32,692 bases of DNA from Acidobacteriaceae bacterium (GTDB taxonomy: Bacteria; Acidobacteriota; Terriglobia; Bryobacterales; Bryobacteraceae). The stretch covers positions 1 to 32,692 of the forward strand of contig JAFASD010000434.1 in the NCBI GenBank assembly GCA_019244945.1. The letters run 5' to 3'. Below, piece by piece: positions 1,070 through 31,151 of the stretch; position 1 is the first letter of the stretch, and each line of letters begins with the position of its first letter. Made by a program: the position numbers and the translations under genes. Below the pieces are notes generated by a model, which saw nothing but the letters and a program-made list of their open reading frames with translations, ran no database searches and had not been told where the DNA came from.

Positions 1070-2932
1070 TTACAACTGTAGGCCGATTTTAAGTACAACT
1101 TTCTTACTCGCTTCAAGCCATTCTGAGTTCAATTCCAGCAGTAGTTCTATTTCAGCTGTGCCCGGATTTCCCTCGACGTCTCTGACCTGAACCATCGTTC
1201 TTGCGAGCGGGAGCGTTGACGAATAGGGGAATTGAAGGTTGCGTCGACCTTTGCCTGGATGATCAACATATTGCTCAATCCATGCAGCAACCTCGTGCTG
1301 CAACTCGATGCTCGAACGTCCTTTGTTCTGCCACTGCATCCCTTCGATGCTATGGGCAATCTGACATGCCACTAATAGATGTTCCAATTCGCGTGATGTC
1401 AATGCTTCGGGAGAGCACACGCGCTGTTGATCTGAACTCTTCGGTGATTCGATTTCGTATAACGTTGGAATTTTCCAAAATACAGCCGCTCCGGTCCCGC
1501 GATCATATTCGAGTACTGCAAATCCTTGTTTAGAAAGCGCCGCGCCTGCAGAACGGGATAGCAGACCTTCGATGGGAGGCACCGTTTTGAAAAAAGCATT
1601 TTCCGCAATCGGAGAATGAGGCTGGAGCCCCGGAACTCTACCGTTCCTTAAGCCATGCATTTCTAAGCACCAGCCACGTTGCGCATAAGCCGTGATCATG
1701 CACGTACCGATTGCGTACGCAGCGTTTGACCACAAATAGTCCGACACTTTGGCTAGAGTCTCGGTATGCTTCCAGTTTGTGCGCGGGGACGTGTGATCCA
1801 AATAGGGATTGCGGAGTCTAATGCGCGGCAACGTCAATATGCAATATGAAGACTCTCGCGCTTTTCGAAACTCACGCCAGCCATACGACGAATCGTATGC
1901 GCATCTGTCGTCCCAATAGGTAGGGTCTTGCGAGAGTTCGGCAAACGATTTAGCTCCGAATGCATTGGGACCGATTGCGGAAATGATCGGTGCGTGTGCT
2001 ATCGCGGCAGCCGCACAGAGTCGTTCGAGCAGAAATGCATCTGGGTCGTTGACGTGGGGAGTGAATTCGTAGTCGGCGATCATCGCCAGACAAGGTCTAG
2101 CACGGGTGGGCCTATCTCTCTGAACGCGTTCCGCAGAATGGAACAGTAGTAATTTGCTCGACAGCTCCGATGATCGTTCAACTTCTCGAATCGTACTCAA
2201 CAGATCGTGCTTCGTTGCATGAATGACCTCAATTGCAACCAGCGGCTCGAAGTGTTCTTTAGTCGCTCGCTGTAGGTCCGACATAATCCAGTGCATTTCG
2301 TCGCGATTTACAGTGCGTTCGCCGTTCGCGTTTTCTCTTGGGTCGATATAACGATTTTCTGAATACTCCAGCAAGTATTCGAGACCGCGCCAGCTCGCCT
2401 CTAAAGACTGAAATTCTGGATGATGTAGAATCTCGTTAACTTGAGTTGACAAGATTCCTGGTATTTCAGGTTTGCTGCCGTGAGGTTCGTCCAGGAGGTT
2501 TCGCAATGCCGGCAGACATTCGACAATGTGGCTGGGACCAAAGTCGTCCATACATTCGAACCAGAGTTCCGCCTGCAGAACTTCCGCTGAACTCATCTCT
2601 TGTGATCGCCGGCACATGTGATTCAGAACGGCGATCTGAATACCAGGAGTCCCCACATAGTCAAAAACGGTCTTCGATTGTTGTCCCCGCGCTTTTTCCA
2701 GATCCTTTCTCGTCTTCGGCAAAGTCAGTTTCGTGAGAGGATGCGATTTCGCCTCGTTGCTCACGCGCCCTCTTCCAGGATCTGTTAAAGCACGAACAGG
2801 ATTAAGAGGGTTGTTCCCCGCGAAGTCTCCGATAACCAAAACTCTGACCGGAAGATCCGGCAAAAAGACACGCTCTACTCGCGTTTTGCGGGGTCGCCAG
2901 TGTTCTCCAGAGGGAGATTTTTTCGTTCGCAT
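1070..2932 (-). CDS. Fused TssB-like / TssC-like contractile sheath protein (single polypeptide, 620 aa)
   Basis: The N-terminal ~155 aa carry TssB motifs: LPVRVLVIGDFAG versus LPLNILVLGDFKG, and FECMDDFGPSHIVECLPAL versus IERMIDFGPDAIVSKLAPF of the tssB at 9667. From aa ~165 the protein is collinear with the TssC at 10208: EILHHPEFQSLEASWRGLEYLL, AMIADYEF, AHAPIISA, LTLPRIRLRNPY, YLWSNAAYA. One uninterrupted ORF with an ATG start. Confidence 0.8.
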   Translation of the reverse strand: MRTKKSPSGEHWRPRKTRVERVFLPDLPVRVLVIGDFAGNNPLNPVRALTDPGRGRVSNEAKSHPLTKLTLPKTRKDLEKARGQQSKTVFDYVGTPGIQIAVLNHMCRRSQEMSSAEVLQAELWFECMDDFGPSHIVECLPALRNLLDEPHGSKPEIPGILSTQVNEILHHPEFQSLEASWRGLEYLLEYSENRYIDPRENANGERTVNRDEMHWIMSDLQRATKEHFEPLVAIEVIHATKHDLLSTIREVERSSELSSKLLLFHSAERVQRDRPTRARPCLAMIADYEFTPHVNDPDAFLLERLCAAAAIAHAPIISAIGPNAFGAKSFAELSQDPTYWDDRCAYDSSYGWREFRKARESSYCILTLPRIRLRNPYLDHTSPRTNWKHTETLAKVSDYLWSNAAYAIGTCMITAYAQRGWCLEMHGLRNGRVPGLQPHSPIAENAFFKTVPPIEGLLSRSAGAALSKQGFAVLEYDRGTGAAVFWKIPTLYEIESPKSSDQQRVCSPEALTSRELEHLLVACQIAHSIEGMQWQNKGRSSIELQHEVAAWIEQYVDHPGKGRRNLQFPYSSTLPLARTMVQVRDVEGNPGTAEIELLLELNSEWLEASKKVVLKIGLQL

Positions 2933-3052
2933 AGAAACATCTTCGTGTTTGGAGCAGCTTTTATGCGCCTCCGTAGCGAACGCATTTGTTCTCGGTACGG
3001 GAGCGTCTACTTGAGCCTGTGAAGTGCATGATGTTGAGCGGTCGAGAACACG

Positions 3053-4309
3053 TCACTTACGGAAATCCTGCTCGGTAAGTCCAGGAACTGCGGCAATCTT
3101 CGCGAAACGCATCTGAATGGCACGCTGGCTAGAATCTGGTTTAAGCTGCATGATGGTCGGATATTGGCTTCGCCCGAAGGGTTTGTATTGTGAATATAAG
3201 ATTTCACGGGTAGGCCCGACCTTGAGAGTGCACCTTACCGTTGTCGGTAGCGATTGATCGTTCAGTGTGACGTAGTAGACCGCTAAATCATTTTTCGCTT
3301 GGATCGTGGTAGGTGTTGCCGTTCCAGGATCTGCGAGTAGCTCAACGTTATTCCCACCCAAAATATCCAGGACATTCGGCAGCTGAAAGTCCCGAAAAAG
3401 ACGCACAAAGTCTTGAAGTGATGGTTCTACCCACGCCACCGCCGGTTTGAGCTTTGCTTTGGATCGGGTTGAAGCGTCAATAACAGAGATCGTTTCGTGG
3501 CCAGCACCGTTGATATCCATCAAAGCCATACCAGGAATTTTCCAATTCGCCTTGATGCTCCAGGCCGTGCTCTTTCCGTCTTCCGACCATATTGTTGCTT
3601 CGCCGGAGGCAGTGCCAGAACTCAGGTCCGACATCCCCTCTTTCCCGCCCAGAGCTTGGATTAGCGACGCTAATCGTTGCTTCCCGAATAGATGTCGGGT
3701 CTCCAGCGTGGGTGTCAGAACAAAGCGATCAACCGTCTTTTCCTTATCGGCTTCAAGTAATACCCGAGAAGTTGCAACCTCGTAATTCGGGTTGTGTTTT
3801 GCTATTTGAATTTGGATGGTACCCGGTTGCAGTCCCGAGACAGTCAGTTTCCCGTCAGTGGTCTTGTAATTCGTGGTTTTACCTTTTTCATCTGTTAGCG
3901 AAACCTCGCATTCAGCCGGCACACAAGTGAGGTTAAGGGGGCCTGCGACTTTGATTTTCTTATTAGAGCTTTCGACCTGCTGAGGCCTGAGCGCGTCCAA
4001 AACGCTTGCGGGCGCACCAGCAGCTTTCAACTGATCGAATTCCGAGTCAGTAAGTGGCGCGGCAAGATTTCTTTTCTTGATGGCCAAAACAATGCGGTTC
4101 TCTGGTATTACTTTCCTTTCCACCCACTGCACTACTTCCTGGAACACTATGGGTGGCCCCTGAGTAATATCAGGCGGCCGCGTTCGCTGTCTGGCTCGGG
4201 GAGTTGTTTGACCGCCTCGGGCTTCGAGTGCTGCTTGCGTTGCCACTGGTCCAGACGACGCTACTTGAATCAGGCAAAAGCTCAAAGCGATAATTGCGAA
4301 GAATTTCAT
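3053..4309 (-). CDS. Secreted hypothetical protein (signal peptide; PEGA-like beta-sandwich segment)
   Basis: The ORF runs 3053..4366. The internal ATG at 4309 gives the signal peptide MKFFAIIALSFCLIQVASS and removes the overlap with the upstream gene (stop at 4332). NLTCVPAECEVSL...GLQPGTIQIQIAK resembles a PEGA-type domain. The C-terminal half is unassigned. Confidence 0.55.
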   Translation of the reverse strand: MKFFAIIALSFCLIQVASSGPVATQAALEARGGQTTPRARQRTRPPDITQGPPIVFQEVVQWVERKVIPENRIVLAIKKRNLAAPLTDSEFDQLKAAGAPASVLDALRPQQVESSNKKIKVAGPLNLTCVPAECEVSLTDEKGKTTNYKTTDGKLTVSGLQPGTIQIQIAKHNPNYEVATSRVLLEADKEKTVDRFVLTPTLETRHLFGKQRLASLIQALGGKEGMSDLSSGTASGEATIWSEDGKSTAWSIKANWKIPGMALMDINGAGHETISVIDASTRSKAKLKPAVAWVEPSLQDFVRLFRDFQLPNVLDILGGNNVELLADPGTATPTTIQAKNDLAVYYVTLNDQSLPTTVRCTLKVGPTREILYSQYKPFGRSQYPTIMQLKPDSSQRAIQMRFAKIAAVPGLTEQDFRK

Positions 4310-4331
4310 AGCCCCGTCACAGTGCACTTTC

Positions 4332-5438
4332 CTACGGCACCTCGGTTTCGGCCTTTTTGGCCTCAATCACCGTGTGTCTTAGCTGTCGAGCTTCGCGAAA
4401 ATCGGGATTTCGGCGTAAAAGAAAATCCAGTACGCGTCTTGCTTTGTCGTATTCACCCGCTCTGTACAGCTCTTCAGCTCTTTGCATGACTTCAGCCAAC
4501 GCGCTTTCAGACAGCGGCACCCGCGGCGCCGTAGTTCCTGTGGCTCCCGTGTTCGGAACTCTCGGTAGTAGCGTGGAGTTGTTAATCGATTGCTGTTGTG
4601 ATGATCCGCTAGCCTGGTTTGTCGGAACTTCAGTGGAGCCGGTCTTTGCTATCTGCGGTGCATTCTGTCCCGCATACGACCTGTACGTAGCGGCTTTATC
4701 TTTGTAAGGCTTCGCAGCTTCAGGTGACGTTTGCCTCTGGGCAAGGATTTCCTCCCATTTTGCTAGCGCCGTATAATACCGGGTTTGGAGATCCAGATCT
4801 CTTGGAGGTTGGAAATCTTCTAGTCTTGTGACGTAATTGCCAATCTCATCCATACCGTCTGATTCCGGAGGTGGTGAGTTCAATGCCCATTTCAGCTCTT
4901 GTGATGCGTCGAAGGTCAAGTATTCGCGCTGCATAAAGCCGATGGGAAACGCTCGACCGTCGCGCACAAGCTGCACCTTGATCCAGTGAGGCTCCGTTGC
5001 AGGTAGCTCAAGAACGTGAATCGATTCTCCGCGCTCTGCCTCGTAAAGCGATTTTGATATGAGTGAAGGAGCGACAAAAATTGAAACTCTCGCCGGTTTT
5101 ATCTTTGCTGTCGTTAAAGAGGGTGCCAGAACTGGACGCGATTGAAACATGTCCTTCACGCGACTGGCAACTCCCGTTTCGGCAAGCGCAATCAGAATTA
5201 CAGCGCCGACGAGCGCTGCGGCCGTAACTTTGAGCCAAGTCGGAAATGGCGGGAAAAATACCCGTTCCCAAGAACTGCGACGGAGTTGGTGTAACTTGCG
5301 TTTCTGCCTCGCTAATTCAGCTTCGGCGTGCCGCCACTGTGGTGAGCGTTTTACATCCTCGTCCTTGATAGCCCTTTGGAGTTCCTCTATATCCTTCGTG
5401 ATTTTCTGGATCTCTAATTGCCGGCGGTCAGGACTCAT
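4332..5438 (-). CDS. Single-pass membrane protein with SH3b-like and C-terminal TPR-like segments
   Basis: ATG 5438 overlaps the kinase stop by 11 nt (ATGAGTCCTGA). It has a charged N-terminal coiled-coil and one TM helix (WLKVTAAALVGAVILIALAETGV). An SH3b-like stretch follows (ARVSIFVAPS...GESIHVLEL...HWIKVQL...GFM), then an S/T/Q/P-rich linker and a TPR-like helix pair (AEELYRAGEYDKARRVLDFLLRRNPDFREA). Confidence 0.55.
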   Translation of the reverse strand: MSPDRRQLEIQKITKDIEELQRAIKDEDVKRSPQWRHAEAELARQKRKLHQLRRSSWERVFFPPFPTWLKVTAAALVGAVILIALAETGVASRVKDMFQSRPVLAPSLTTAKIKPARVSIFVAPSLISKSLYEAERGESIHVLELPATEPHWIKVQLVRDGRAFPIGFMQREYLTFDASQELKWALNSPPPESDGMDEIGNYVTRLEDFQPPRDLDLQTRYYTALAKWEEILAQRQTSPEAAKPYKDKAATYRSYAGQNAPQIAKTGSTEVPTNQASGSSQQQSINNSTLLPRVPNTGATGTTAPRVPLSESALAEVMQRAEELYRAGEYDKARRVLDFLLRRNPDFREARQLRHTVIEAKKAETEVP

Positions 5439-7881
5439 TGCTGCCCCGTTCCCTAGAATGTTCGCGAATGCGGGTTACCAACTGTTCTAGAAGTGCTCGT
5501 TTGACCTTTTTCTTCAATTGGAGCAAGCGCGGGTGATTGGGTGCAATGGCCAGCCCATCTGTAACGCGTTGCTCTGCCGATGGCAGTTGCCCTGCCTCTA
5601 TGTCGTTCTCGGCTAGGCTGTAGAGATTTTCTGCCCGAAGCCGACGAGCAAGCCGCCTTTCCGAGAATTCACTGCTGCAAAGCAGTTCGAGCGATTTCGA
5701 GTATTGGCCGGTTTCTCTGGCTGCCCATGCAGACGTCAACGCATTTTCGAAGGTCGGCTGAGAATTCAAACCAGCGCTTACAACTTCTGCCTTCTCCTGA
5801 AGATCGCTATCAGGATCAGATTCAAGGAGGATTCGCGCAAGCACGTCACTTGCAAGCCGATACTCCTCCATTGCTACATAGAGGTTCAATTGCCGGCGTC
5901 GACCCTCAAGCACGACCTGTCTAGCGGCTCGAGCGGGGCTATCCCTAACTCCCAGCACTATCTCCCCCAGATATGGGTGATCTTTCCAAAAGAACCGCAA
6001 AGCGCGCCAATCAGATAACGCTTCGGCAAGACTTGCCGGTCCCTGAGCTGTTTGTCCAGTTTGCCTTAGCGCGAGGAGCGCATCCAAAACCCCGCACACC
6101 GGATGATGGATGTGGACGGCCTTGAGGCTATCCAGTAATTCACGCGCTCTGTCCAGTTTTCCTTCAGCAAGCGTGTGCAGTACCGCGTTGGCCTCTTCTT
6201 CGAACATCCGATGTAAGCTACGAACGTGCTCGCTCTCCGCTCGTGCTAAGTCATCCCCGCCGCAAAAATCCGAATAGGCGTCATACCAAAGCGCGGACTC
6301 CTCATACCGGTGTTGATGACGCGCCGCTTCCGCTTCTTTCAATAGCTTGGTCGCATTATCAAGCTGAATGTTGTCTTCCTGCTCCCGGAGTTCTATGTAA
6401 TCCGATAAACGTAAGAGCTCCAGCGTGCCGCCATACCGCATCCCCTCTTCTATATGTTTCTTTGCGTCCGCGTAGGCGTGAGCGGCGATTTGAGTACTTG
6501 CCTTGGCGGCTTCTGCCATGGGCAATAGCTCACGATGGAACGCAAAGACGCTTGAATGACTAGGGGACCGCCGCATGACTTGATTTGTGATGTTATATGC
6601 ATTTGTGTAATCACCTTCCTTGGCAAGTTGCCGGGCGTATCGGCGCACTGCACCGTCAATTTCGCGACGCAAATCCGTAATCTTAGAAGACGTTTCTCCC
6701 TTGTTCTCGATGGATTCCAATTCTTTCGAAATAGACAGCACTCGGTTAAAATCGCTTTCACTTGTAGCGTGACAGAGTTCGCTGTATAGCTCGTCCACCT
6801 TCTCGTCCAACTGCTTCGCTTCATCCAGGAGTACCGTTAATTGGTCGGGAGTCGCAGGTATGGTGAGTTGGTCTGATCGTGCATTCTGAATGCTTTCCCA
6901 AGCTTTCATGAAATCCTCGGGACTGCGAGGACGATTTTCGGGATCTTTCGCCATCGCCCGATGCACAAGTCGTGCGAAAAGGAGCATCCGCGTTTTCTCT
7001 GGACTCTCCTTGGCATGCTCCAAGGTGTCAATGGGCAAGCAAGGTGGAGGAGGATAAAATTGGATAGCGGCGAGAGCATCTTCCAAGTCTTCTGTTCGAA
7101 CGGTCTTAGACAAGGGGTGCTCACCCATCAATGCTTCATAACAAATCACGCCCAGCGCGTAGATATCGCTCTTCGCCGTAGGGTTGCTAAGTGACTCTGG
7201 CGCCCAGTACAGGGGTGTCCCCGTTGCCATCTCGAGCTCAGGTTCGTTTACAGGCTTGCAGACTCCGAAATCCACCAATGTGACCGCATCGTGCTTCCCG
7301 ACCATGATATTGGCCGGCTTAAGATCCCTATGCAGAAAGCTATTTTCATGGGCGTGCTGAAGCGCCGAGCAAATCTGTTTAAGCATGAAGTACCAGCGAT
7401 CCAAGGGGATCTTGCCTTGCTGCTTGAACAGCGTCTCCAAGGTCTCTCCTTCGACGAATTTCATGACAAGAAACCCATATGCGTTTCCGTCGTTGGAGAA
7501 GGTTCCGAAGTCGTAGAGATCGGCGATATTGGGGTGAGTTAGCGTTGTTAGGGCGTGGAGCTCGTTTGCAAATGTCTGGTCAAGTGAGTTGACAGTTTTG
7601 ACTGCTACCTTTCGTTTCGGGCCGTTCCGCACTTCATAGCCGGAAAATACCTTTCCCATCGATCCGGCTCCAATTTGTTCGACAATTCTCCACTGCTGCT
7701 GTCCGAACAATACAGATGGGACCCGCTCTGTGGAATCCTCGCTTGAACCGAATTCGCTTGTGTTCCAATCGCTGCCGGTGATGGGCTCTTCTGCTGCGAA
7801 TGCCTTGGCTGACATGACTACATGCCTTGGCAACTCGGCCAGCCGCCTCAGGTATTCGGTCGGCTTTTCGTTCAGGAGCAT
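5428..7881 (-). CDS. Hanks-type Ser/Thr protein kinase with ~500-aa C-terminal helical-repeat region
   Basis: Kinase subdomains GAGSMGKV, VAVK, HRDLKPANI, DFG and TPLYWAPE are present. No TM helix is seen in the long helical C-terminal region. The ORF opens with TTG at 7902, but ATG 7881 has GAGG 7 nt upstream and is preferred. Confidence 0.85.
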   Translation of the reverse strand: MLLNEKPTEYLRRLAELPRHVVMSAKAFAAEEPITGSDWNTSEFGSSEDSTERVPSVLFGQQQWRIVEQIGAGSMGKVFSGYEVRNGPKRKVAVKTVNSLDQTFANELHALTTLTHPNIADLYDFGTFSNDGNAYGFLVMKFVEGETLETLFKQQGKIPLDRWYFMLKQICSALQHAHENSFLHRDLKPANIMVGKHDAVTLVDFGVCKPVNEPELEMATGTPLYWAPESLSNPTAKSDIYALGVICYEALMGEHPLSKTVRTEDLEDALAAIQFYPPPPCLPIDTLEHAKESPEKTRMLLFARLVHRAMAKDPENRPRSPEDFMKAWESIQNARSDQLTIPATPDQLTVLLDEAKQLDEKVDELYSELCHATSESDFNRVLSISKELESIENKGETSSKITDLRREIDGAVRRYARQLAKEGDYTNAYNITNQVMRRSPSHSSVFAFHRELLPMAEAAKASTQIAAHAYADAKKHIEEGMRYGGTLELLRLSDYIELREQEDNIQLDNATKLLKEAEAARHQHRYEESALWYDAYSDFCGGDDLARAESEHVRSLHRMFEEEANAVLHTLAEGKLDRARELLDSLKAVHIHHPVCGVLDALLALRQTGQTAQGPASLAEALSDWRALRFFWKDHPYLGEIVLGVRDSPARAARQVVLEGRRRQLNLYVAMEEYRLASDVLARILLESDPDSDLQEKAEVVSAGLNSQPTFENALTSAWAARETGQYSKSLELLCSSEFSERRLARRLRAENLYSLAENDIEAGQLPSAEQRVTDGLAIAPNHPRLLQLKKKVKRALLEQLVTRIREHSRERGSNES

Positions 7882-8220
7882 GCCACCGCCTCTGGGAGAC
7901 AAACATTATAATACCGGCGATACGACTAAGCGTGGAACTCTTTGCCTGCCAGCCGCGTCGCCTACGCACAGCTGTTAATAGTGCTCGCTAACAGAACGAA
8001 TCTCACGACGAGATGCGCGTGAGTGAAACGAGAGTCGTTGACAAACGCTGAGTACGTGCGGTTGTATCGTGTTCGCCCGACCCTTGAAAAAGTGCCCCAT
8101 TCGTAAGTTCGGTACTTGAGATGCCGTTGAGAACCCAATTCGCCTGCCTTATTCCGTACTCAGATGTGATATGATTATGCGCCCATAGGAGGTTTTCTGA
8201 CGGCGAGCGCCACAGCGATT

Positions 8221-9654
8221 ATGGATTGGGCGGCTTTGGGCGCTGCCGCCGTGAATGGGGAAATGCCGGCGGGCGTTCCGTGCAGCAGCGAAGCCTCGTA
8301 CCACACGCTGGAAAGGACTGTGGGTAGTCTCGGCGCCAGCCAAGAAGACTTGGAAGAAGCATTGCAAAGCGCGGCGTCACTCCTCGAATTGAGGGGTAAA
8401 GACTTTCGCGTCGCGATATACGCCACTAAGGCGCTTTTCAAGACGGAGGGGATCGAGGGGTTAGCGGACGGGCTTGCCTGCATTCATGCCATGGCGAAGA
8501 ACTTCTGGGAAGCCGCGCATCCGAAGCTGCAATACCGCGAATCGTGGTTCGGAAACCTCAGCGATTTTGTTCGATCAGTTCTCACGAATATCGATTCGCA
8601 GCAAACTGTGGCAATCGAACGCTGTGCCGATACTGCAAGCGATCTGGGCGAGTTCCTTGAGCACAAACTCGGAAAACAGCTCAACTTCAACACAATCGCC
8701 GTCGATCTCAGGAAGCTCATTCCGCGCAAGAAAGACACTGCACCGCCCGAACCTGCGCCCCCGAAATCTGCGGCTGAATCTCCGAAGGTCCTTCCCCTGA
8801 GTGCGCCCCCGGACGAGCTCAGCAAGCCGATCACAGCCATCCCCCTACCGCCCCCGGCCGGTGCGCCGACGGCACTCCAAGTCCGAAACGCTCTGCTGAA
8901 AGATGCCCATACCGCAAGGAAACACAACCGCGCAGAATTATGGCCCTACCGGGCAGTTCGCACTGCGGCCTGGCGGCAGATCACTAAACCCTTGACGTAC
9001 GATTCGCAACTCGCGAGTATTCCGCCCCCCTCGGAGTACCTGATTCGATCTCTCGCTGAACTCACGGGTTCGGCCTCGTGGGACGATCTCTGCGACAAAT
9101 CAGAGCAAGCGATCCCCGAGCACCCGCTGTTTTTGGATCTGCATATTCATTCGGCGAAAGCCCTGAGTGAGTTGGGCGGCGCTCACCAGCTCGCGGCGGA
9201 GTTCGTGCGCTCCGAGGCGCAGCTCTTTCTTGAAGAGTTTCCGTGGGTCGCAGAGTTGAAGTTCAATGACGGAACTCCTTTTCTCAGCGATTCCGCGCGC
9301 GCGTTCTTAACCGTGAAGGCCCAATCGGCCGAAGTACCGAGTACCCGGAGCACAATTTCGACTCGGCGGAAAAGGTTTGAAAACCTGATTGAACGGATCA
9401 GGGCGCTTGTGCAGGCGAACCATCCAGAGTTAGCACTGGCCGCTCTGGGCGCTCTCGATTCCGAGATAACGCGCTTTTCCCTGGAGGAATGGGATTCCGA
9501 AATCTGCGTAGAAGTATTTGAACTTTGGCTGAACGTGCTCGATCCCTTGCGCGGCTCGGACACACGGAAAAGCGAACTTTTCAACTCTGTCTTTGCCCGG
9601 CTGATCTCCATTGACCCCGGGAGAAAGATCGGGTTGGGCGAAATACAGGTTTGA
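8221..9654 (+). CDS. tssA: T6SS TssA/VasJ-family protein (ImpA N-terminal-like domain)
   Basis: First gene of the plus-strand T6SS operon, directly upstream of tssBC. It has an ImpA_N-like N-terminus, a Pro/Ala-rich linker (PPEPAPPKSAAESPK...PPPAGAP) and a helical C-terminal domain, as in VasJ/TssA-type proteins. Confidence 0.7.
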   Translation: MDWAALGAAAVNGEMPAGVPCSSEASYHTLERTVGSLGASQEDLEEALQSAASLLELRGKDFRVAIYATKALFKTEGIEGLADGLACIHAMAKNFWEAAHPKLQYRESWFGNLSDFVRSVLTNIDSQQTVAIERCADTASDLGEFLEHKLGKQLNFNTIAVDLRKLIPRKKDTAPPEPAPPKSAAESPKVLPLSAPPDELSKPITAIPLPPPAGAPTALQVRNALLKDAHTARKHNRAELWPYRAVRTAAWRQITKPLTYDSQLASIPPPSEYLIRSLAELTGSASWDDLCDKSEQAIPEHPLFLDLHIHSAKALSELGGAHQLAAEFVRSEAQLFLEEFPWVAELKFNDGTPFLSDSARAFLTVKAQSAEVPSTRSTISTRRKRFENLIERIRALVQANHPELALAALGALDSEITRFSLEEWDSEICVEVFELWLNVLDPLRGSDTRKSELFNSVFARLISIDPGRKIGLGEIQV

Positions 9655-9666
9655 TAAAGGAGAAAC

Positions 9667-10200
9667 ATGCCAGAAGACGATGACTTAGTCGCACCGATTC
9701 AGCGAATCAATATCACTGTGGAAGCCCATACCAAAGGCCAGCCCGAGGGCGAGCTACCACTGAATATTTTAGTGCTTGGAGACTTTAAGGGAAGACCTGA
9801 TGAGCTTCCTTTGTACCTCCCAACACAGGCCGTACATTCCCGGTCCGAGATTCCCGGCGCACGAGACGTACGAGGTACCAGGTCGATTACCAAGGACACT
9901 GATTTCGAAAGGGTACTGCGCGAGATGCATGTGACTATCGACTTGGACATTGGCGACACGGCATACGAATACAAAATTGAACGAATGATCGATTTTGGTC
10001 CGGATGCGATTGTTTCCAAACTCGCCCCGTTTGCGAAATTAGTCGAAATACGCCAAGCGTTGGAATCATTACTGACGCCTTTGAAAAACCCGCACGGGGT
10101 TCGAAAACTGCTCGAAGATGCGGTGCGGGACGAGTCTAAGCGCGAAGCGCTGGTTACTGCGATGGGAATTGAAAACGCCGAGGCGAGCGAAGGCAATTGA
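9667..10200 (+). CDS. tssB: T6SS small sheath subunit TssB (VipA)
   Basis: Motifs IQRINITVE, ELPLNILVLGDFKG and MIDFGPDAIV; 177 aa. AAGGAG lies 4 nt upstream of the ATG. Sits immediately 5' of tssC. Confidence 0.9.
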   Translation: MPEDDDLVAPIQRINITVEAHTKGQPEGELPLNILVLGDFKGRPDELPLYLPTQAVHSRSEIPGARDVRGTRSITKDTDFERVLREMHVTIDLDIGDTAYEYKIERMIDFGPDAIVSKLAPFAKLVEIRQALESLLTPLKNPHGVRKLLEDAVRDESKREALVTAMGIENAEASEGN

Positions 10201-10207
10201 GGGCACA

Positions 10208-11770
10208 ATGTCGCACATTTTCGAAAAGGTGAGCAACACCCAGGTCGCTGACCAAGAAAACCCGATAAAAGCTCCAGTAGTGGCTGAGTTACTGGATACC
10301 GCCGTCCAACAATTCCAAGAACAAGCGGGCACGACGGAGTTATACACCGAAGGAACGGGCAAAGATAAGAAAGAAAAACGAATTCCGATCCGTGAAGCGT
10401 TCCTTTGCATTCTTGCGGAAGTTCTGCGGAACGGGAACGAAACCAAACCGATTAATGAAATCGTGGTGAAGGAGCTGATCAAAGAGCTTGACATCTTCAT
10501 GAGCGCCGAGCTGGACAAAATTCTTCACGATGCTCGTTTTAAAAGGCTTGAGGCGGCATGGACGCAACTCAAATATCTAGTCGACCATGCGGATTTCCGA
10601 AGGAATATAGAGATCAACGTGTTGAACATCTCGAAAGATGAGTTGCGCGAGGACTTGGAGAACCAGGCACCGCGCTCCTCATTCTTGTACAGGGTCGCTT
10701 ACCAATTCGATTACGGCCAATTTGGCGGCCACCCGTACGGCGCGATGATCGCCAATTATGACTTCGGACCGAATTCGCCTGACATGTCGCTATTAAGAAA
10801 CATCTCACGGATTGCAAATTGGGCGCATGCGCCGTTCATCGCGGCTGCGTCACCGGAGTTTTTCGGTGTGCGTGAGTTCCGCGACCTCTCATATCTCACC
10901 GATCTGGATCAGATCGTCGAAGGTCGCAAGCCTCAGAACACCGAGTGGCTTGAGTTTCGAAAAACGAAGGAGGCGCGATGTGTCGGATTGACATTGCCGC
11001 GCTTTCTGCTGCGCTTACCCTACGGTAATCAAAAGCCAACTAAGACATTCGGGTATACCGAGAGCGTGACCAATCATGACGCTTATCTTTGGGGTAATGC
11101 GGCGTTCGCGTTTGCCACGCGCCTAACTGAAAGCTTTGCCAGGAACCGCTGGTGCGCGAACATCATTGGTCCTCGCGGGGGCGGAGCTGTCAAGAATCTT
11201 CCATTGCATATCTTCCCCACGCTTGGAGGCAGCATGGGGGCTAAAATTCCGACGGAGATCATGATCCCGGACGAGCGTGAAGGGGAACTGGCGAGAGCCG
11301 GATTTATACCGCTTGCGATCAGGAAAGAAACCAATGAAGCCGCGTTTTTCTCAGCTAATTCATGCCAGGTTCCTGCTTGGTTTGGGGACGGCGACGAGCA
11401 AATGATCGACCAAGCCAATTTTAAGCTCAATACCATGCTGCCCTATACATTCATGATTAGTCGCGTAGCGCACTATATCAAGGCCATGCAGACAGAAAGA
11501 CTGGGGCTGAACTACAGCGCGACCCAGATGCAAAAAGAATTAGAGAAGTGGCTTCAGCAATATGTCGCAAATTTCGACGCGCAGCCGGAAGTTAGGGCGC
11601 GCCGGCCGTTCAGAGAGTTAGAGATCGTAGTCCTCCCCAAACCCGGCGACCCGGGCTGGTTCAGAGTACAAATATTACTGCGGCCGGACTTCAAATATCA
11701 AGGTGCGGATTTCAAATTGTCGCTCGTCAGCGAAATGGCTGAAAGGGCGCAGAAACAGCAGAACCAATAA
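10208..11770 (+). CDS. tssC: T6SS large sheath subunit TssC (VipB)
   Basis: Motifs ILHDARFKRLEAAWTQLKYLV, GAMIANYDF, AHAPFIAAASPEFFG, LTLPRFLLRLPYG and YLWGNAAFAFA. The ORF opens at 10118, but ATG 10208 follows GAGGG (4-nt spacer) and the tssB stop at 10200. Confidence 0.92.
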   Translation: MSHIFEKVSNTQVADQENPIKAPVVAELLDTAVQQFQEQAGTTELYTEGTGKDKKEKRIPIREAFLCILAEVLRNGNETKPINEIVVKELIKELDIFMSAELDKILHDARFKRLEAAWTQLKYLVDHADFRRNIEINVLNISKDELREDLENQAPRSSFLYRVAYQFDYGQFGGHPYGAMIANYDFGPNSPDMSLLRNISRIANWAHAPFIAAASPEFFGVREFRDLSYLTDLDQIVEGRKPQNTEWLEFRKTKEARCVGLTLPRFLLRLPYGNQKPTKTFGYTESVTNHDAYLWGNAAFAFATRLTESFARNRWCANIIGPRGGGAVKNLPLHIFPTLGGSMGAKIPTEIMIPDEREGELARAGFIPLAIRKETNEAAFFSANSCQVPAWFGDGDEQMIDQANFKLNTMLPYTFMISRVAHYIKAMQTERLGLNYSATQMQKELEKWLQQYVANFDAQPEVRARRPFRELEIVVLPKPGDPGWFRVQILLRPDFKYQGADFKLSLVSEMAERAQKQQNQ

Positions 11771-11784
11771 AGGAGAACTAAGAT

Positions 11785-12252
11785 ATGGCAGACGAAGCAA
11801 ACATGACGGTACCGGGAATTCAGGGCTCCTGCGATATTCAGGGGAGAGAGGGAACGATTCGCGTGCAGTACGTTGAACACAATGTCTCGAGGCCGTACGA
11901 CATTGATACAGGGCAGCCAACCGGCAGACGTGTACATTCACCGTTTGTGATCCGGAAAGAGGTGGACAAGGCCTCCCCACTTCTGTACCGCGACCTTGCT
12001 GAAGGCAAAAAGTACGATTCCGTGGAGCTCAAATGGTATCGCACGGCGAAAGACGGAAACCAGGAGCACTATTTCACAACGAAGCTCACGGATGCCCTGC
12101 TTGTTTCGATAAAGGCGTTAAAGAAGGATACGCAGGATCTATCATCGAAATCGTACAAGGACATGGAGGACGTGTCCTTTGTTTATAGGAGGATTGACTG
12201 GAAAGAAGAAACGAATGGCGTTGAGGCGTACGACGATTGGCGGAAAGCCTGA
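11785..12252 (+). CDS. hcp: T6SS tube protein Hcp
   Basis: 155 aa with the Hcp1-family signature GRRVHSPFVIRKEVDKASPLLY. AAGGAG lies upstream. Positioned between tssC and tssE. Confidence 0.9.
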   Translation: MADEANMTVPGIQGSCDIQGREGTIRVQYVEHNVSRPYDIDTGQPTGRRVHSPFVIRKEVDKASPLLYRDLAEGKKYDSVELKWYRTAKDGNQEHYFTTKLTDALLVSIKALKKDTQDLSSKSYKDMEDVSFVYRRIDWKEETNGVEAYDDWRKA

Positions 12253-12271
12253 TTGAGGTTGCTAGGACGCG

Positions 12272-12664
12272 GTGTCTGCGATTCGGTTGATCGAGCGGCT
12301 GCGGGGAGTAGCCAAAGGACGACTTTCGGTACAAAACTCAATCGAAAGCTACCTTCTGAATATATTGAACACGGTTGAAGGCGCGGTGCTTGCCAATCCG
12401 GCATATGGTCGGGCCGATTTTACGGACTTCCCATTCTCGAGTGAGCTGGCGCGCACTCTCGAGCGGCGTATCCCCGCGCTGGATCGTCGAGTTGAGAAAG
12501 TTCGTGTGCGCGTGCTGGAAGCGGAGATGCGCTTACCTGGGGAGCTTGCGTTTCTCGTGGAGTGGTGGCCAGCGAATTCCGCGGAGACCAATCGGTTCAT
12601 CGCGAAGCGAACGGACGACGGTCAGTTTCACATTCCCGATGTTCTGAACCGCGCATCGATATGA
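12272..12664 (+). CDS. tssE: T6SS baseplate wedge protein TssE (gp25-like)
   Basis: 130 aa with SIESYLLNILNTVEGAVLANPAYG, matching the gp25/TssE N-terminal motif. GTG start. The stop overlaps the tssF ATG (ATGA). Confidence 0.8.
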   Translation: MSAIRLIERLRGVAKGRLSVQNSIESYLLNILNTVEGAVLANPAYGRADFTDFPFSSELARTLERRIPALDRRVEKVRVRVLEAEMRLPGELAFLVEWWPANSAETNRFIAKRTDDGQFHIPDVLNRASI

Positions 12665-14436
12665 ACTTTAACCGCTATTTCGAAGAGGAGCTGACCTTTC
12701 TCAAAAACCTCGGGCCTGAGTTCGGGCGGCGCTGGCCGGAGTTGGCGCCCTTTCTGGGTTCTGATGATCCGAATGATCCCGCGTTCTCACGAGATCCGGA
12801 TGTGGACCGGCTCTTCGAGGGGTTTGCCTTCCTCACCGGTCGTATTCGTCAAAAGCTCGACGACGAGTTCCCGGAGCTAATTGATACGCTGCTCTCGGTA
12901 TTGGCGCCCGATCTGCTTCGGCCCCAACCGAGCGCAACCATCATCGAATTTGAGCCAATGCAAGGGCGCGTGCGCGGTGCAACGGAGATCCCGGCTCGCG
13001 AGGTAGAGCTTGGTGCAAAGCTCGGCAACGGTGCCGAGTGCCGTTTTCAAACCTGCTGGCCTGTCGAGGTCCTTCCGCTATCTCTCCAAGATGTCGCTTC
13101 CAAGGTACTTACAGATGGTGGTCTTGAGCTTCGCCTCAATCTTGTCTGGTACGACAAGGCGAGCCCTCCTGACCTTGATCGCTTGCGATTTCATTTGAGC
13201 GGTAAAGGCGCCGCCGATCTTTATCTGTGGTTTTGCGAACACCTGGTCAGGTGCGCGCTGACCGGTGCAGAGGTAGACCGGTCGATTCGGTTGCCCAAGC
13301 CCACTCCCCTGGGGTTCGTGCCTGGAGAGGCGCTCGTTTTGCAAACGGCGCCCTTCGACGGCGCCAGGCTTCTTCAGGAATATTTTGCCTTTAAAGCAAA
13401 GTTTCTCTTTGTCGAATTCTCTGGTCTCAAGGCGCTGCAAAAACTTGGCCGCCCGAAGGAATTTGCGTTATACCTGCGATTTCGGGACATTCCCGCACAC
13501 CAATTCGATCTCTCGCCAGCAAACTTTCGGCTGTTTTGCTGTCCGGCCGTGAACATGTTCCCGGCAGACTCCGATCCAATAGCCGTGACCGGCGAGAGGT
13601 ACGAGTATCCGGTTCAAGCCGCTGACAGCGACCTTTCCATCCACTCCATTCAGAGCGGCCAGGGATGGCTTGCGGGCACGAGAGAGCCCCGGGATTATGA
13701 GCCTTTCGTGTCCTTATCGCGCAAGCCCGATACAACTTACTACGACATAAAGTTTCGTCGGCACATTGTAACGGAGGAGCCACAGGCCTTCGTTTCTTTC
13801 GTGACACCCCGTCAAAAGGAACTGGTAGCCTCCCGAGAGACCGTGGTTTTTTCTCTGTTGTGCACGAACGGGTCCGCCGCCCAAACAGTGAAAGAGGGCC
13901 AGATTCATGACCAAACAAGCACGAGTCCGGAATATGCCCGGTTTCGGAACATCTCGCCCATTTCGCCATACGTTCCGGTTCCGACTTCGGCCGAGCGCCG
14001 GTGGCAACTGCTCTCGCACATGGTGCTGAGCCCCACCGCTCTCAACGATGTGGACAGGCTTGCCAGCATGCTCCGGATGTACAACATTCCGATCACTGCA
14101 GATCCACCAGTTGCACGCGCTAATATTCGACGAATTGAGAGTATCAGCGCAATGCGGGTGGCTCCCGCGGACTTCATGATGACCTCGGAACTCGACCCCG
14201 GCGGCTTTCGGGTCGGCGGCTATGGGGTCTCTGTACGCGGAACATCGGTTGAACTTGATATGGATGGCGAACAGTTCGCCTCTGAAGGCGATTTGTTCCT
14301 ATTCGGGTCCGTTCTGAACCACGTTTTCGGGTACTGTGCAACGCTGAACTCGGCTACGCGACTGACCGTGAAGAATACCGCTACTGGGACTGTACACCGC
14401 TGGACGCCTCACGTAGGCTCGCAGCCCGCTCTTTGA
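12661..14436 (+). CDS. tssF: T6SS baseplate protein TssF (ImpG)
   Basis: The N-terminus MNFNRYFEEELTFLKNLGPEFGRRWPELAPFL is typical of TssF. ATG 12661 forms an ATGA overlap with the tssE stop. The longer ORF from 12562 overlaps tssE by ~100 nt and is rejected. Confidence 0.9.
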   Translation: MNFNRYFEEELTFLKNLGPEFGRRWPELAPFLGSDDPNDPAFSRDPDVDRLFEGFAFLTGRIRQKLDDEFPELIDTLLSVLAPDLLRPQPSATIIEFEPMQGRVRGATEIPAREVELGAKLGNGAECRFQTCWPVEVLPLSLQDVASKVLTDGGLELRLNLVWYDKASPPDLDRLRFHLSGKGAADLYLWFCEHLVRCALTGAEVDRSIRLPKPTPLGFVPGEALVLQTAPFDGARLLQEYFAFKAKFLFVEFSGLKALQKLGRPKEFALYLRFRDIPAHQFDLSPANFRLFCCPAVNMFPADSDPIAVTGERYEYPVQAADSDLSIHSIQSGQGWLAGTREPRDYEPFVSLSRKPDTTYYDIKFRRHIVTEEPQAFVSFVTPRQKELVASRETVVFSLLCTNGSAAQTVKEGQIHDQTSTSPEYARFRNISPISPYVPVPTSAERRWQLLSHMVLSPTALNDVDRLASMLRMYNIPITADPPVARANIRRIESISAMRVAPADFMMTSELDPGGFRVGGYGVSVRGTSVELDMDGEQFASEGDLFLFGSVLNHVFGYCATLNSATRLTVKNTATGTVHRWTPHVGSQPAL

Positions 14437-14442
14437 TCGCCA

Positions 14443-15495
14443 ATGTCGCCCGACACGGTTCGCAGAACGTCGTTTTTCTCGCTGGTGGAAGCCATCGAAC
14501 GGTTTTGCCAGCCGCAGGCGACCGTCGGACAGCTCGGCCCTCCCCAATACGAAGTCCTGCGCTTCCGCGTTGATCCCTCCTTCGCCTTTCCCGTATGCGA
14601 TGTGTTGTCGCTGGAGCCTCCACAGGACGGAGAAGCCCAGTGGCCCTATTACACCGTCACAACAACATTTCTGAGTCTCCTGGGCAGCGGCTCGCCGCTC
14701 CCCGATCTCTACACCCAAGAGATCGTTCACGATCCCGAGCGCGGCGAAGCTAAGCGCGCGTTTTTTGATCTCTTTCACCACCGTCTGATATCGCTTTTTT
14801 ATCGCGTCTGGCGCAAGTACCGGTATGCTTTCACGTTTCGGGAGGACTGCAAAGACCCTTATTCGCTTCGCTTTCTCCTATTAACAGGTGCCGATCCCGA
14901 AAGTATTTTCGGGCAAACTGCCGTTGATGCAACCGTGTTTCTTCGGTACCTTCCGGTGTTCTATCGCAAGCCACGGTCTGCGTCGGCACTGGCGCCTCTG
15001 CTCCGGGACTTTCTGGGAGGGATTAACGTCGCGGTCGTCCAATTCATTCCCCGGAAAGTTCAGTTCGAAAGCTGGCAGCACAGCGCGATTGGCGCGCAAA
15101 ACAACTGTGTCGGTCGAAACATGCTCATCGGTGCGAAAGCGACAAGTCTCAACGCGGGATTTCGCGTATTAATCGGGCCGCTCACGTATGAGAGATACGT
15201 TGGGTATCTGCCAGAAGAACAGGGAATGCGACAAGTTGTGCAGCTCACAACATGGTTTACGACTGACCGGCTCGACTTCGATCTCGAGTTCCAGGTCGAA
15301 TATCAAAGTGTCCCACTCTTTTGGCTGGGACAAGCTTCAGCCGAGCATCATTACGCTCGGTTGTATAAGCTCAAGTGTTCCTTACTCGGCCGGACGACTT
15401 GGCTGCGGAATCCGGAAAGGCCACCGCATACCGGCCAGATCTCTTCCATAATTATGCCGACTTCGCCGACGTCTTCCACAACGATGGCGGCGTAA
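14443..15495 (+). CDS. tssG: T6SS baseplate protein TssG (ImpH)
   Basis: 350 aa with the N-terminal motif SFFSLVEAIERF. Size and position directly after tssF are typical of TssG. Confidence 0.85.
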   Translation: MSPDTVRRTSFFSLVEAIERFCQPQATVGQLGPPQYEVLRFRVDPSFAFPVCDVLSLEPPQDGEAQWPYYTVTTTFLSLLGSGSPLPDLYTQEIVHDPERGEAKRAFFDLFHHRLISLFYRVWRKYRYAFTFREDCKDPYSLRFLLLTGADPESIFGQTAVDATVFLRYLPVFYRKPRSASALAPLLRDFLGGINVAVVQFIPRKVQFESWQHSAIGAQNNCVGRNMLIGAKATSLNAGFRVLIGPLTYERYVGYLPEEQGMRQVVQLTTWFTTDRLDFDLEFQVEYQSVPLFWLGQASAEHHYARLYKLKCSLLGRTTWLRNPERPPHTGQISSIIMPTSPTSSTTMAA

Positions 15496-15510
15496 GGGAA
15501 GGTCCTCACT

Positions 15511-17238
15511 ATGGCCTCGCAAGCACTCAGTACCGCATATTTTACCTTCGAAGTCGAAGGATGTCCGACAGAATTTGGTATCTCCAGCTTTGAAGGGGAA
15601 GAGAGCATCTCCGATTTCTTCCGATTTGATTTGTCGCTTACAGCGACCGACGAGGACGTGGATTTCGACTCTGTGTTCAACTGCCCCGCGCGGCTAACGC
15701 TGCACTTTGAAACAAGCATCACCGTCTTTGAGGGGGTTCTCGCATGTTTTGAGCAGCTTGACGGAACCGACTACGTGATGAACTATCACGCAGTACTCGT
15801 ACCAAAGCTATGGCTGCTCACACTGAGCAAACACAACCGCATTTTTCAGAATAAAACGGTGCCTCAGATCGTCTTGGAAGTGCTGCGGCTGAATGGCTTC
15901 AAGTCCACGGAGTACGACGTCTCGGGTGTTCGCAAGAAATATCCACAACGCGAATACGTGGTCCAGTACCAGGAAACTGACTTCAATTTTGCCTCTCGGC
16001 TGCTGGAACACGAGGGCATTCTCTACGTGTTCAGTCAGGCGGACCCGAAAAAAATCCTTTTTTTGGACGCATCCCAGCAACTCGAGCCGATTCCTGGTGA
16101 TCCCGAGCTTTCCTATAGACCTCCGACCAATCAGGTTGCAACAAGCGAGTCGGTTTACGAGATCTCGATGCGGCAGAATATGCTCCCGAAGGAGTATCTT
16201 TTACAGGACTACAACTGGAGACGTCCATCTCTCGATCTGAATCAGAAAACCGACGTCGCGCCGAACGGGGCCGGCATCGTGATGGAGTACGGCGACCATT
16301 ATAGGGACAAGAATGAGGCGCGTCATTTGGCGCGAATGCGCAAGCAAGAACTGGCGTGGCAGAAAAGAGTGATGGATGGGCGAGGAACTTCTCCCCGGTT
16401 TCGCGCAGGGTCGTTGTTCACGATGCGAGATCACTTTCGTTTTGACGGCGAGTACCTGCTGACAGAAGTCCAGCATCACGGAACGCAAGGAGGCTCGGGC
16501 TTCGCTTCGACAGCAAGCGGCCAGCGTCCCGGTGTCGAGTACGGTAATCGGTTCAGCGCAATACCTTCCAGCATCCCTTACCGGCCACTCCGGAAGGCCG
16601 TCAAACCGAGACTTTACGGCGCTATGAACGCCAAAGTGGATGCAGCCGGAGACGGTCAATACGCGGAACTTGATGATCAGGGCCGCTACAAATTAATCAT
16701 GCCGTTTGATACGAGCGGCTTGAACGGAGGAAAGGCGACACGTTACGTCCGGATGGCTCAGCCTTATGCCGGCGAAGAATACGGCATGCATTTCCCTCTG
16801 CACAAGGGCGCAGAGGTTATCTGGACCTGCATCGACGGGGACATCGATAGACCGATCATCACGGGCGCCGTTCCTAATCCATCAAACGCGAGTCCCGTGA
16901 CAGAGCAGGTTCAGACCAAAGCAATAGTCCGCGATCACAGCGCAAATGAAATCCTGCTTGAGGGGGCGAGAGGAGAAGAGCAGATTCAGCTTCGCTCGCC
17001 GACCAAGAACAGCTGCGTCACGATCGGTCACGGTCCGTCGGATGGCGTGAATATTTACACCGAAGGCGCGGTCGTGTTGCATTCAGGCTCTGATCAGGTC
17101 TATATCGAAGCCGCGAATCAGATCACCTTAAAAGTAGGAGACAGCGTTCTGTACATGGACAAAGAGGGCAACATCCGCCTCGAAGGCAAGCACATTACCA
17201 TCAACGGCCCGGATATGGTTGATATAAATCCCGGGTAA
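15511..17238 (+). CDS. vgrG: T6SS spike protein VgrG (no C-terminal extension domain)
   Basis: 575 aa. The N-terminus is FEVEGCPTEFGISSFEGEESISDFFRFDLSL. The gp27/gp5-like core carries RYVRMAQPYAGEEYGMHFPLHKGAEV and DGDIDRPIITGAVPN, followed by a terminal beta-helix. Confidence 0.9.
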   Translation: MASQALSTAYFTFEVEGCPTEFGISSFEGEESISDFFRFDLSLTATDEDVDFDSVFNCPARLTLHFETSITVFEGVLACFEQLDGTDYVMNYHAVLVPKLWLLTLSKHNRIFQNKTVPQIVLEVLRLNGFKSTEYDVSGVRKKYPQREYVVQYQETDFNFASRLLEHEGILYVFSQADPKKILFLDASQQLEPIPGDPELSYRPPTNQVATSESVYEISMRQNMLPKEYLLQDYNWRRPSLDLNQKTDVAPNGAGIVMEYGDHYRDKNEARHLARMRKQELAWQKRVMDGRGTSPRFRAGSLFTMRDHFRFDGEYLLTEVQHHGTQGGSGFASTASGQRPGVEYGNRFSAIPSSIPYRPLRKAVKPRLYGAMNAKVDAAGDGQYAELDDQGRYKLIMPFDTSGLNGGKATRYVRMAQPYAGEEYGMHFPLHKGAEVIWTCIDGDIDRPIITGAVPNPSNASPVTEQVQTKAIVRDHSANEILLEGARGEEQIQLRSPTKNSCVTIGHGPSDGVNIYTEGAVVLHSGSDQVYIEAANQITLKVGDSVLYMDKEGNIRLEGKHITINGPDMVDINPG

Positions 17239-17296
17239 AGGTCTCGCAGCAAGTCGATCTAAGCATAAGGGCTAGGGCTCACAGGCTTTAATCAAT

Positions 17297-17764: not shown

Positions 17765-17786
17765 CAGAAAAGAGCTGTTTGAGCAC

Positions 17787-18803: not shown

Positions 18804-18825
18804 CAACGATCGAAAGGAGGATAGC

Positions 18826-19488: not shown

Positions 19489-19581
19489 ACGCGCAACGGG
19501 TACGTACTCGACAGCATCGACTTACTCGGTCGCCGATTATGGAGCTAATAGTTATTTAGTTCCTCAGATAGGACAACTATC

Positions 19582-19701: not shown

Positions 19702-19727
19702 TTCCGGTCAATGCACAGTTAGCGGGT

Positions 19728-21206: not shown

Positions 21207-21242
21207 CAGTTACACCATGCGCGGGCCGCCAGGGCTCCGAGG

Positions 21243-31146: not shown

Positions 31147-31151
31147 CCGCC

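Follow-up and report, generated by a model that had tools for sequence, protein, structure and literature searches.

A putative post-translational control operon with a split Hanks kinase, a LolA/RseB-like partner and a fused sheath paralogue beside a type VI secretion cluster of an Acidobacteriaceae bacterium

The 32,692-nucleotide (nt) stretch of an Acidobacteriaceae bacterium analysed here (the window; contig JAFASD010000434.1 of assembly GCA_019244945.1) carries a type VI secretion system (T6SS) cluster and, divergent from its gene tssA, a cassette of four genes encoding a Ser/Thr kinase, a transmembrane (TM) protein, a signal-peptide (SP) protein and a fused TssB-TssC sheath protein. From the sequence, fold and context of these genes we infer that the cassette is probably a T6SS-linked post-translational control operon, in which a split sensor kinase would act with a partner of LolA/RseB-like fold and with a sheath paralogue lacking the ClpV-binding handle. 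The first three genes appear to be a split variant, without a PP2C phosphatase, of a recurring T6SS kinase module that has PpkA/TagR-like input and a new periplasmic partner, because related loci pair a single-chain kinase with an SP protein, a PP2C phosphatase and tssL-tssM. An initial annotation of this DNA had proposed a distinct sensing or assembly-control module. The link to the T6SS stands and a role in sensing or assembly control is very likely, but the genes would represent a known type of kinase module in split and PP2C-less form and not a new pathway. The features of the cassette were as follows:

5428-7881, minus strand: Ser/Thr kinase gene, an open reading frame (ORF) with an ATG start and an in-frame TTG upstream at 7902
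4332-5438, minus strand: TM protein gene, an ORF of 368 residues
3053-4309, minus strand: SP protein gene, an ORF with an ATG start that extends to a TTG at 4366
1070-2932, minus strand: fused TssB-TssC sheath gene, an ORF of 620 residues
7882-8220, no strand: divergent intergenic region between the cassette and tssA, common to both transcription units

The ORFs agreed with the initial annotation in position, orientation and spacing. The kinase and TM genes overlapped by 11 nt (5428-5438), 22 nt separated the TM and SP genes (4310-4331) and 120 nt separated the SP and sheath genes (2933-3052). The divergent region, given before as about 340 bp, was 339 nt from the kinase ATG to the tssA start at 8221, or 318 nt from the TTG start, and presumably holds the promoters of both the cassette and tssA. 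Gene spacing together with the lack of predicted terminators in the gaps suggests that the cassette is co-transcribed. A consensus promoter and terminator scan was uninformative, with matches not above shuffle expectation. Public gene calls were too short for the SP protein (344 residues, L002 8678-9712), where the signal peptide and a helical domain were dropped, and for the fused sheath (564 residues, L002 10001-11695), where the TssB motif LPVRVLVIGDF was cut off. The longer starts, also used in the initial annotation, fit better because homologues align further upstream and because the TssB motif precedes the public start; the shorter calls would mask both the secretion signal and the fusion.

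Orthologues of all four genes were present on a second contig, L001 (Logan assembly of SRR31724283), at synonymous divergences (dS) of 0.58-0.85. The ratio of nonsynonymous to synonymous divergence (dN/dS) between the window and L001 was 0.165 for the kinase tail (79% amino acid identity), 0.28 for the TM protein (72%), 0.19 for the SP protein (75%) and 0.35 for the fused sheath (56%). All four cassette genes are real and under purifying selection, and the 620-codon sheath ORF would hardly have stayed open at such dS without selection. The split between the kinase and TM genes, with its short overlap, was identical in the window and L001 and is therefore no sequencing error. A reading of the cassette as a defence system was rejected, as the PADLOC matches of the kinase were to a generic kinase domain and no other cassette gene was matched.

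The kinase matched Pkinase in Pfam (E 6.7e-46, residues 72-328 of the ORF read from the TTG start; catalytic domain at about residues 65-321). The catalytic motifs GxGxxG, VAVK, HRDLKPxN, DFG and APE were all intact, so the kinase should be active. The tail that follows, of about 490 residues, was helical and TPR-like (TPR_19, E 1.2e-4), and a hydropathy scan found no TM segment in the protein. The same scan placed a single TM helix at residues 68-86 of the TM protein, which ended in a Fis1_TPR_C match (E 6.6e-07) and had a weak SH3_3 match (E 0.051). Its layout comprised a coiled-coil-like cytoplasmic N-terminus, the TM helix and, on the periplasmic side, an SH3b-like region, a low-complexity linker and a TPR hairpin at the C-terminus.

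This layout recurred in the C-terminal halves of membrane kinases. Single-chain kinases encoded upstream of SP homologues consisted of a kinase domain, a helical or Pro-rich region, a TM helix, a periplasmic SH3b-like segment, a linker and one C-terminal TPR hairpin, and the C-terminal TPR was kept in all eight of the kinase or TM proteins that precede SP-family genes. The window TM protein, from its TM helix to its last residue, was collinear with residues 507-813 of the single-chain kinase of locus L006 (BLASTP E 1.25e-10), and it aligned with the C-terminal half of the L011 kinase (E 4e-10). A profile comparison by hhalign with the C-terminal halves of four membrane kinases gave a probability of 99.0% (E 2.6e-18, 244 columns). 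Judged by this homology, the kinase and TM protein appear to be a membrane-spanning Hanks kinase split into catalytic and sensor subunits. The initial annotation had described a soluble kinase and a TM/SH3b/TPR protein. The first description holds in that the kinase lacks a TM segment, and the second in that the TM helix and the TPR are present, with weaker support for SH3b, but the two proteins would be the catalytic half and the detached sensor half of one kinase. The annotation had also regarded the architectures of known T6SS phosphorylation pathways as absent. PP2C, FHA and TagQRST-like proteins were indeed not found in the window by domain scans (for PP2C also by tblastn), but the membrane-kinase architecture is apparently present in split form because the TM protein is homologous to the single-chain C-terminal halves. 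Pfam scans gave no match to a vWA domain in either protein. The window kinase could be the severed N-terminal half of a membrane kinase or the descendant of a second, soluble TPR-tailed kinase such as the 723-residue protein of L006, two origins that its sequence does not separate. A kinase divided in this way offers a natural test case for the communication between sensor and catalytic halves.

The third gene encodes a protein with a hydrophobic, signal-like N-terminal segment in the hydropathy scan, which bears out its earlier description as a signal-peptide protein. It had no family membership in Pfam or NCBIfam and no match to the LolA, LolB or RseB families even at E<=10. Word-index homology searches with the SP and TM proteins returned only the queries themselves and the L001 copy. 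The view of the SP protein as an orphan was overturned by an exhaustive profile search, which returned 191 representative clusters at E<=1e-3 and 91 at E<=1e-10. Members of this family were mostly 390-435 residues long, were alignable end to end and carried the invariant residues C129, P131 and C134 (a CxPxxC motif); their public annotation was "hypothetical protein" only. The window protein had the family length, the invariant CxPxxC and a gene placed directly after that of a kinase component ending in a periplasmic TPR.

An AlphaFold2 model of the SP protein, built with 50 family members as the alignment, reached a pLDDT of 90.0 and a pTM of 0.71, compared with a pLDDT of 37 from a two-sequence alignment. 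In the model the signal peptide was followed by a small helical domain (residues 56-107), a β-sandwich (residues 120-197) and a C-terminal domain (residues 200-418). The β-sandwich, of prealbumin/PEGA-like type, carried the CxPxxC motif and had weak Pfam similarity to CarboxypepD_reg and to prealbumin-like domains. The best Foldseek matches of residues 200-418 were 3bk5 (E 9.5e-08), LolB, LolA and RseB/MucB, which are lipoprotein-sorting proteins and stress sensors; matches to LolA, LolB, RseB and MucB had E values of 1e-7 to 1e-3 and TM-scores on the target of 0.5-0.57. The C-terminal domain is thus predicted to adopt a LolA/LolB/RseB-like fold, an unclosed β-barrel with a helical lid. The signal peptide had no lipobox and the protein had no TssJ domain (PF12790). 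A family of 191 clusters known so far as hypothetical proteins can now be given a predicted fold and a genomic role.

The genomic role comes from the company that the SP genes keep. Wherever the context could be read, an SP homologue was preceded by the gene of a Hanks kinase, or by the C-terminal part of one truncated at the contig end. Where the upstream kinase gene was complete, it overlapped the SP gene by 1-4 nt or lay within about 25 nt of it, and these overlaps suggest that the kinase and SP genes are translationally coupled. The contexts outside the window and L001 were as follows:

L006, L007/L008 and L088: PP2C phosphatase, membrane kinase, SP protein, tssL and tssM, in this order
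L011/L012: Tlde1 domain (a T6SS effector family) encoded by the gene that follows the SP gene; no core T6SS genes in the available sequence
L009/L010: contigs of insufficient length to judge; no core T6SS genes in the available sequence
L086: kinase/SP pair among housekeeping genes; no T6SS gene within 10 kb

T6SS loci or their remnants made up four of the seven distinct contexts (the window with L001, L006, L007/L008 and L088). The TssC proteins of T6SS loci carrying an SP gene grouped with those of Acidobacteria such as Terriglobus in a neighbour-joining tree. A background set of 71 T6SS loci was taken from GTDB genomes, anchored on the canonical TssC of the window at no more than 53% identity, and a metagenome scan with alignment A5 returned three loci only. 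The kinase/SP pair marks one subset of T6SS loci and is not strictly confined to T6SS. As to whether the cassette is conserved next to T6SS loci, which the initial annotation had put forward for checking, the pair recurs beside tssL-tssM, but the four-gene form was found on two contigs only and the pair occurs without a T6SS in L086.

Soluble kinases were also found beside sheath genes. The 723-residue soluble kinase of L006 was encoded by the first gene of a tssB-tssC-hcp operon, directly upstream of tssB-tssC, and in L088 (15864-18346) the gene of a 349-residue soluble Hanks kinase overlapped that of a 478-residue TssB-TssC-like fusion by 4 nt, just after tssM. This recurrence in SP-family loci is suggestive, in a small sample whose excess over 0 of 71 is not significant. 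Another possible member of the SP family was seen in Terriglobus saanensis (L084, CP002467.1, 1-850), where the gene of a 434-residue protein without a Pfam match overlapped the start of a PP2C gene beside tssM-tssL-tssK; its size and missing annotation fit the family, with only 59 nt of the gene in the stretch that was seen.

The last gene of the cassette encodes a fused TssBC paralogue, as first proposed, with Pfam matches to VipA (E 6.5e-06, residues 116-148), VipB (E 4.7e-54, residues 225-487) and VipB_2 (E 9e-08, residues 512-600). The protein fell below the NCBIfam equivalog cut-offs of TIGR03355 (203.6 against 271.5 bits) and TIGR03358 (30.5 against 97.25 bits). Its match to solved VipB/TssC chains (E about 2e-44) began only at the ILHxxxFQ helix, and the hidden Markov model coordinates that it covered were 34-125 of TssB and 80-487 of TssC. 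Its TssB part ran to the DDFGP...IVxxLP segment, and its TssC part set in with the helix that immediately precedes ILHHPEFQ...WRGL. Some 140 residues were missing at this junction in an alignment to concatenated canonical TssB and TssC, namely the TssB C-terminal helix onward and the first 75-80 or so residues of TssC. The TssC core and the C-terminal gpW/gp25-like domain were kept, and there were lineage-specific inserts at about residues 50-75 and 193-230. In the Pseudomonas aeruginosa sheath, domain 3 is the outer layer, with the ClpV-binding N-terminal helix, and two of its three helices come from the segments missing here; the R2 pyocin sheath, which is not recycled, has no domain 3 (PMC5807055). 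Read against that structure, the fused protein is a single-chain TssB-TssC paralogue without most of domain 3, the ClpV-binding region. It coexists in the window with a canonical tssB/tssC pair. Neither clpV nor tssJ was found in the 32.7-kb window by Pfam and NCBIfam scans and by tblastn with ClpV and TssJ queries; clpV lay within 10 kb of tssC in 44 of the 71 background loci.

The fused sheath sat on a long branch of the neighbour-joining tree, with 26-32% identity to every TssC compared. No TssB-TssC fusion occurred among the 71 generic T6SS loci, and literature searches turned up neither natural TssB-TssC fusions nor a LolA-like partner of a T6SS kinase. Fusions were present in these other loci:

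L003 and L004: full-length, end-to-end TssB-TssC fusions, each the sole sheath gene of its locus
L005, 874-11758: 585-residue fusion in which most of domain 3 is missing, with a second hcp after it and a canonical tssB-tssC-hcp beside it

An upstream gene in L005 encoded a HAMP-SpoIIE phosphatase, and clpV was not seen in the 19 kb available. The L088 fusion was reached through the SP family and not through the sheath. The window fusion had 27-29% identity to the fusions of L003-L005 and about 22% to that of L088.

A mechanism for the proposed control operon can be outlined from these features. The SP protein would sense an envelope cue, such as a lipid, a lipoprotein or another envelope-damage signal, and would dock on the periplasmic TPR/SH3b part of the TM protein. 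The TM protein would carry the signal across the membrane, where its cytoplasmic coiled coil may recruit or activate the separate catalytic subunit through the long helical tail of the latter. The kinase might then phosphorylate a component of the T6SS, with TssL or the sheath proteins as possible targets, and so license assembly of the neighbouring apparatus in a step analogous to that of PpkA with TagR or RtkS. The fused sheath keeps the polymerisation core (domains 1 and 2). It may be built into the canonical TssB/TssC sheath, or cap it, and there serve as a regulatory or non-recyclable subunit; alternatively it could itself be the kinase substrate. A complete circuit, in which the SP protein detects envelope lipid or lipoprotein damage and acts through the split kinase on a dedicated single-chain sheath subunit serving as a checkpoint, a cap or a ClpV-independent sheath, is a speculative extension that we consider rather unlikely to hold in full. 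If true, clusters without ClpV would have a new mode by which a contractile injection machine is gated and recycled.

The relative locus L001 bears on the coupling between cassette and apparatus. It was collinear with the window on either side of a clean 15.1-kb gap that corresponds to window positions 6945-22086 (junction at L001 4171-4180). The gap takes out the kinase domain, the common promoter region and all T6SS genes from tssA to the start of tssM, and the junction, which lies directly past the catalytic-domain part of the kinase gene, fuses this gene to the beginning of tssM; what is left of tssM was in two ORFs. That the kinase domain disappeared together with the T6SS core is consistent with functional coupling, although this is one event and an assembly artefact is possible.

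Several observations weigh against a control operon. Its support is from sequence, fold and context, and the expression, interaction and phosphorylation steps are inferences, as is co-transcription from the spacing and the lack of predicted terminators in the gaps. The four-gene combination was found on two contigs only, the window and L001, and L001 is decaying; its fused sheath has an in-frame loss of about 85 residues that include the most conserved ILHHPEFQ...WRGL helix. The fused sheath has a dN of 0.30 compared with 0.12-0.16 for its neighbours, evolving about twice as fast. The L088 fusion is not orthologous to that of the window and is truncated differently, keeping domain 3 and lacking VipB_2, the C-terminal gpW/gp25-like domain, and it is nearer to Acidobacteria TssC (E 5e-45) than to the window fusion (E 3e-09). 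An SP-family gene was present in none of the 71 TssC-anchored loci, and the L086 pair had no T6SS gene within 10 kb. Domain scans of the window, extended by tblastn for PP2C, found no PP2C, no FHA protein and no obvious phospho-target.

Some of these points would also be expected if the cassette were the relic of a second T6SS cluster of Acidobacteria type, made up of PP2C, membrane kinase, SP protein, tssL, tssM, soluble kinase and sheath genes, in which PP2C, tssL and tssM had been deleted, the kinase broken and tssB and tssC fused by deletion, and which would now contribute little or nothing. The gene order of L088 minus tssL, tssM and the soluble kinase is that of the window, and the junction of the fused gene resembles one deletion of the 3' end of TssB and the 5' end of TssC. 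Among the genes compared, dN (0.30) and dN/dS (0.35) peak in the fused sheath; degradation has gone further in the L001 copy, where the T6SS core is deleted, and the PP2C and FHA partners were not found in the window. Set against this, the four window ORFs are intact with dN/dS well below 1 at dS up to 0.85, over which a neutral ORF of 620 codons would be expected to gain stops. The kinase split was kept in both lineages with an overlap of the coupling type, and the promoter region is common to the cassette and tssA. Such an origin is also compatible with a present function. A relic is plausible as an origin. The signs of selection speak against a cassette that no longer functions in the window lineage, which leaves an idle remnant an unlikely account of it today.

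It is improbable that the SP protein has instead a structural role as a substitute for TssJ in the TssL/TssM membrane complex, with the kinase genes merely co-located. TssJ also has a transthyretin-like fold, and the SP protein has a prealbumin-like β-sandwich. PF12790 was not found in the window, L006, L007 or L088, and in three loci the SP homologues are encoded immediately upstream of tssL-tssM. However, the SP protein has no lipobox, its gene stays with the kinase and not with tssL/tssM in the window, L001, L086 and L011, and its largest domain is LolA/RseB-like, a ligand-binding fold. A phylum-wide envelope-stress module of kinase and LolA-like protein, often but not specifically near T6SS, with its targets elsewhere and the sheath an unrelated neighbour, would accommodate the L086 pair among housekeeping genes, the lack of core T6SS genes in the available L009/L010 and L011/L012 sequence and the RseB/MucB-type LolA-fold proteins among the Foldseek matches (RseB and MucB being envelope-stress sensors), but is very improbable given that four of seven contexts lie in T6SS loci or remnants, that L011 has an adjoining gene with a Tlde1 domain, that the placement between PP2C and tssL-tssM recurs and that in the window the cassette diverges from tssA and has a sheath gene as its last member.

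The cluster beside the cassette was identified by Pfam and NCBIfam matches:

8221-25303, plus strand (tssK minus): T6SS structural cluster with 11 core genes

Its gene order was tssA, tssB, tssC, hcp, tssE, tssF, tssG, vgrG, an Eag/DcrB-like chaperone gene, a prePAAR-PAAR effector gene, a HEAT protein gene, tssK, tssL and tssM. The longest tssL ORF (GTG at 21147) overlapped the divergent tssK start by 60 nt (21147-21206). An N-terminal extension of about 80 residues before the DotU domain of TssL was considered as a kinase target and rejected, as it probably results from an over-long ORF overlapping tssK, with the true start further downstream. Downstream of vgrG, positions 17297-19488 encoded a DcrB/Eag-like chaperone (155 residues), a prePAAR and PAAR protein of 364 residues whose C-terminal domain is unannotated, and a HEAT-repeat protein (231 residues), together resembling a set of chaperone, effector and immunity genes. 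Convergent with tssM was a minus-strand ORF of 256 residues without a family match (25318-26088; L001 copy at 85% identity, dN/dS 0.16), which could be effector- or immunity-related. A group II intron was located at 31072-32636 on the minus strand, where Rfam Intron_gpII (49.5 bits, 31072-31148) directly follows a reverse-transcriptase ORF (31152-32636), and an ArdC-N and M78/IrrE peptidase-like protein was encoded at 30199-31038. Together with an HTH_17 gene that L002 carries beyond the window start, the ArdC-N protein and the intron hint that the region is near or within a mobile element.

To our knowledge, post-translational control of T6SS has been worked out almost only in Proteobacteria, with PpkA, PppA and Fha acting with TagQRST or RtkS. 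The cassette resembles this pathway in having a Hanks kinase in a T6SS cluster, spanning the inner membrane (here apparently in two pieces) and accompanied by a periplasmic accessory protein, and in having relatives (L006, L007/L008 and L088) with PP2C just upstream. It differs in that the kinase is two polypeptides and that neither PP2C nor FHA was found in the window. The threonine phosphorylation pathway comprises PpkA, PppA and Fha, with the periplasmic activators TagR and TagQST in P. aeruginosa or RtkS in Serratia, and PpkA phosphorylates TssL in Agrobacterium tumefaciens and Vibrio alginolyticus (PMC10482370). TssL is a natural candidate target here as well because the kinase/SP pair lies directly upstream of tssL-tssM, in one operon, in L006, L007 and L088. 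Unlike in the PpkA-TssL systems, tssL and tssM of the window lie 13 kb from the cassette on the opposite strand, and no Fha reader was found in the window. The periplasmic part of the kinase is SH3b-like with one TPR hairpin, whereas that of PpkA has vWA.

The predicted LolA/RseB-like fold of the SP protein, which has no detectable sequence relation to any Pfam family, may set it apart from TagR and RtkS. It also differs from LolA, LolB and RseB themselves by its additional helical and β-sandwich domains and by its coupling to a kinase instead of a link to Lol or sigma-E. TagS and TagT of P. aeruginosa resemble LolCDE, and there may be a link to Lol-like sensing in that species. A LolA/RseB-like partner that recurs with membrane Hanks kinases in T6SS loci of poorly studied soil lineages is a testable candidate for envelope sensing.

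Domains 1 and 2, the polymerisation and handshake layers of the sheath, are built from the N-terminal part of TssB, the core of TssC and the C-terminal gpW/gp25-like domain, and the fused sheath resembles the canonical one in keeping all three. It differs from canonical TssB/TssC in being fused, in lacking the domain-3 helices, in its two inserts and in its sub-cut-off score. As one chain without most of domain 3 it is like the R-type pyocin sheath (PMC5807055), and like the L005 fusion it lacks most of domain 3 and coexists with separate tssB and tssC; the L088 fusion is, in turn, coupled to a kinase gene. Handle-less single-chain sheaths beside canonical TssB/TssC in clusters without ClpV bear on how sheaths might be disassembled without ClpV and on specialised regulatory sheath subunits. 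The kind of pathway, kinase control of a T6SS, is already known, and what is new here is the fold of the partner, the split of the kinase and the rare sheath paralogue.

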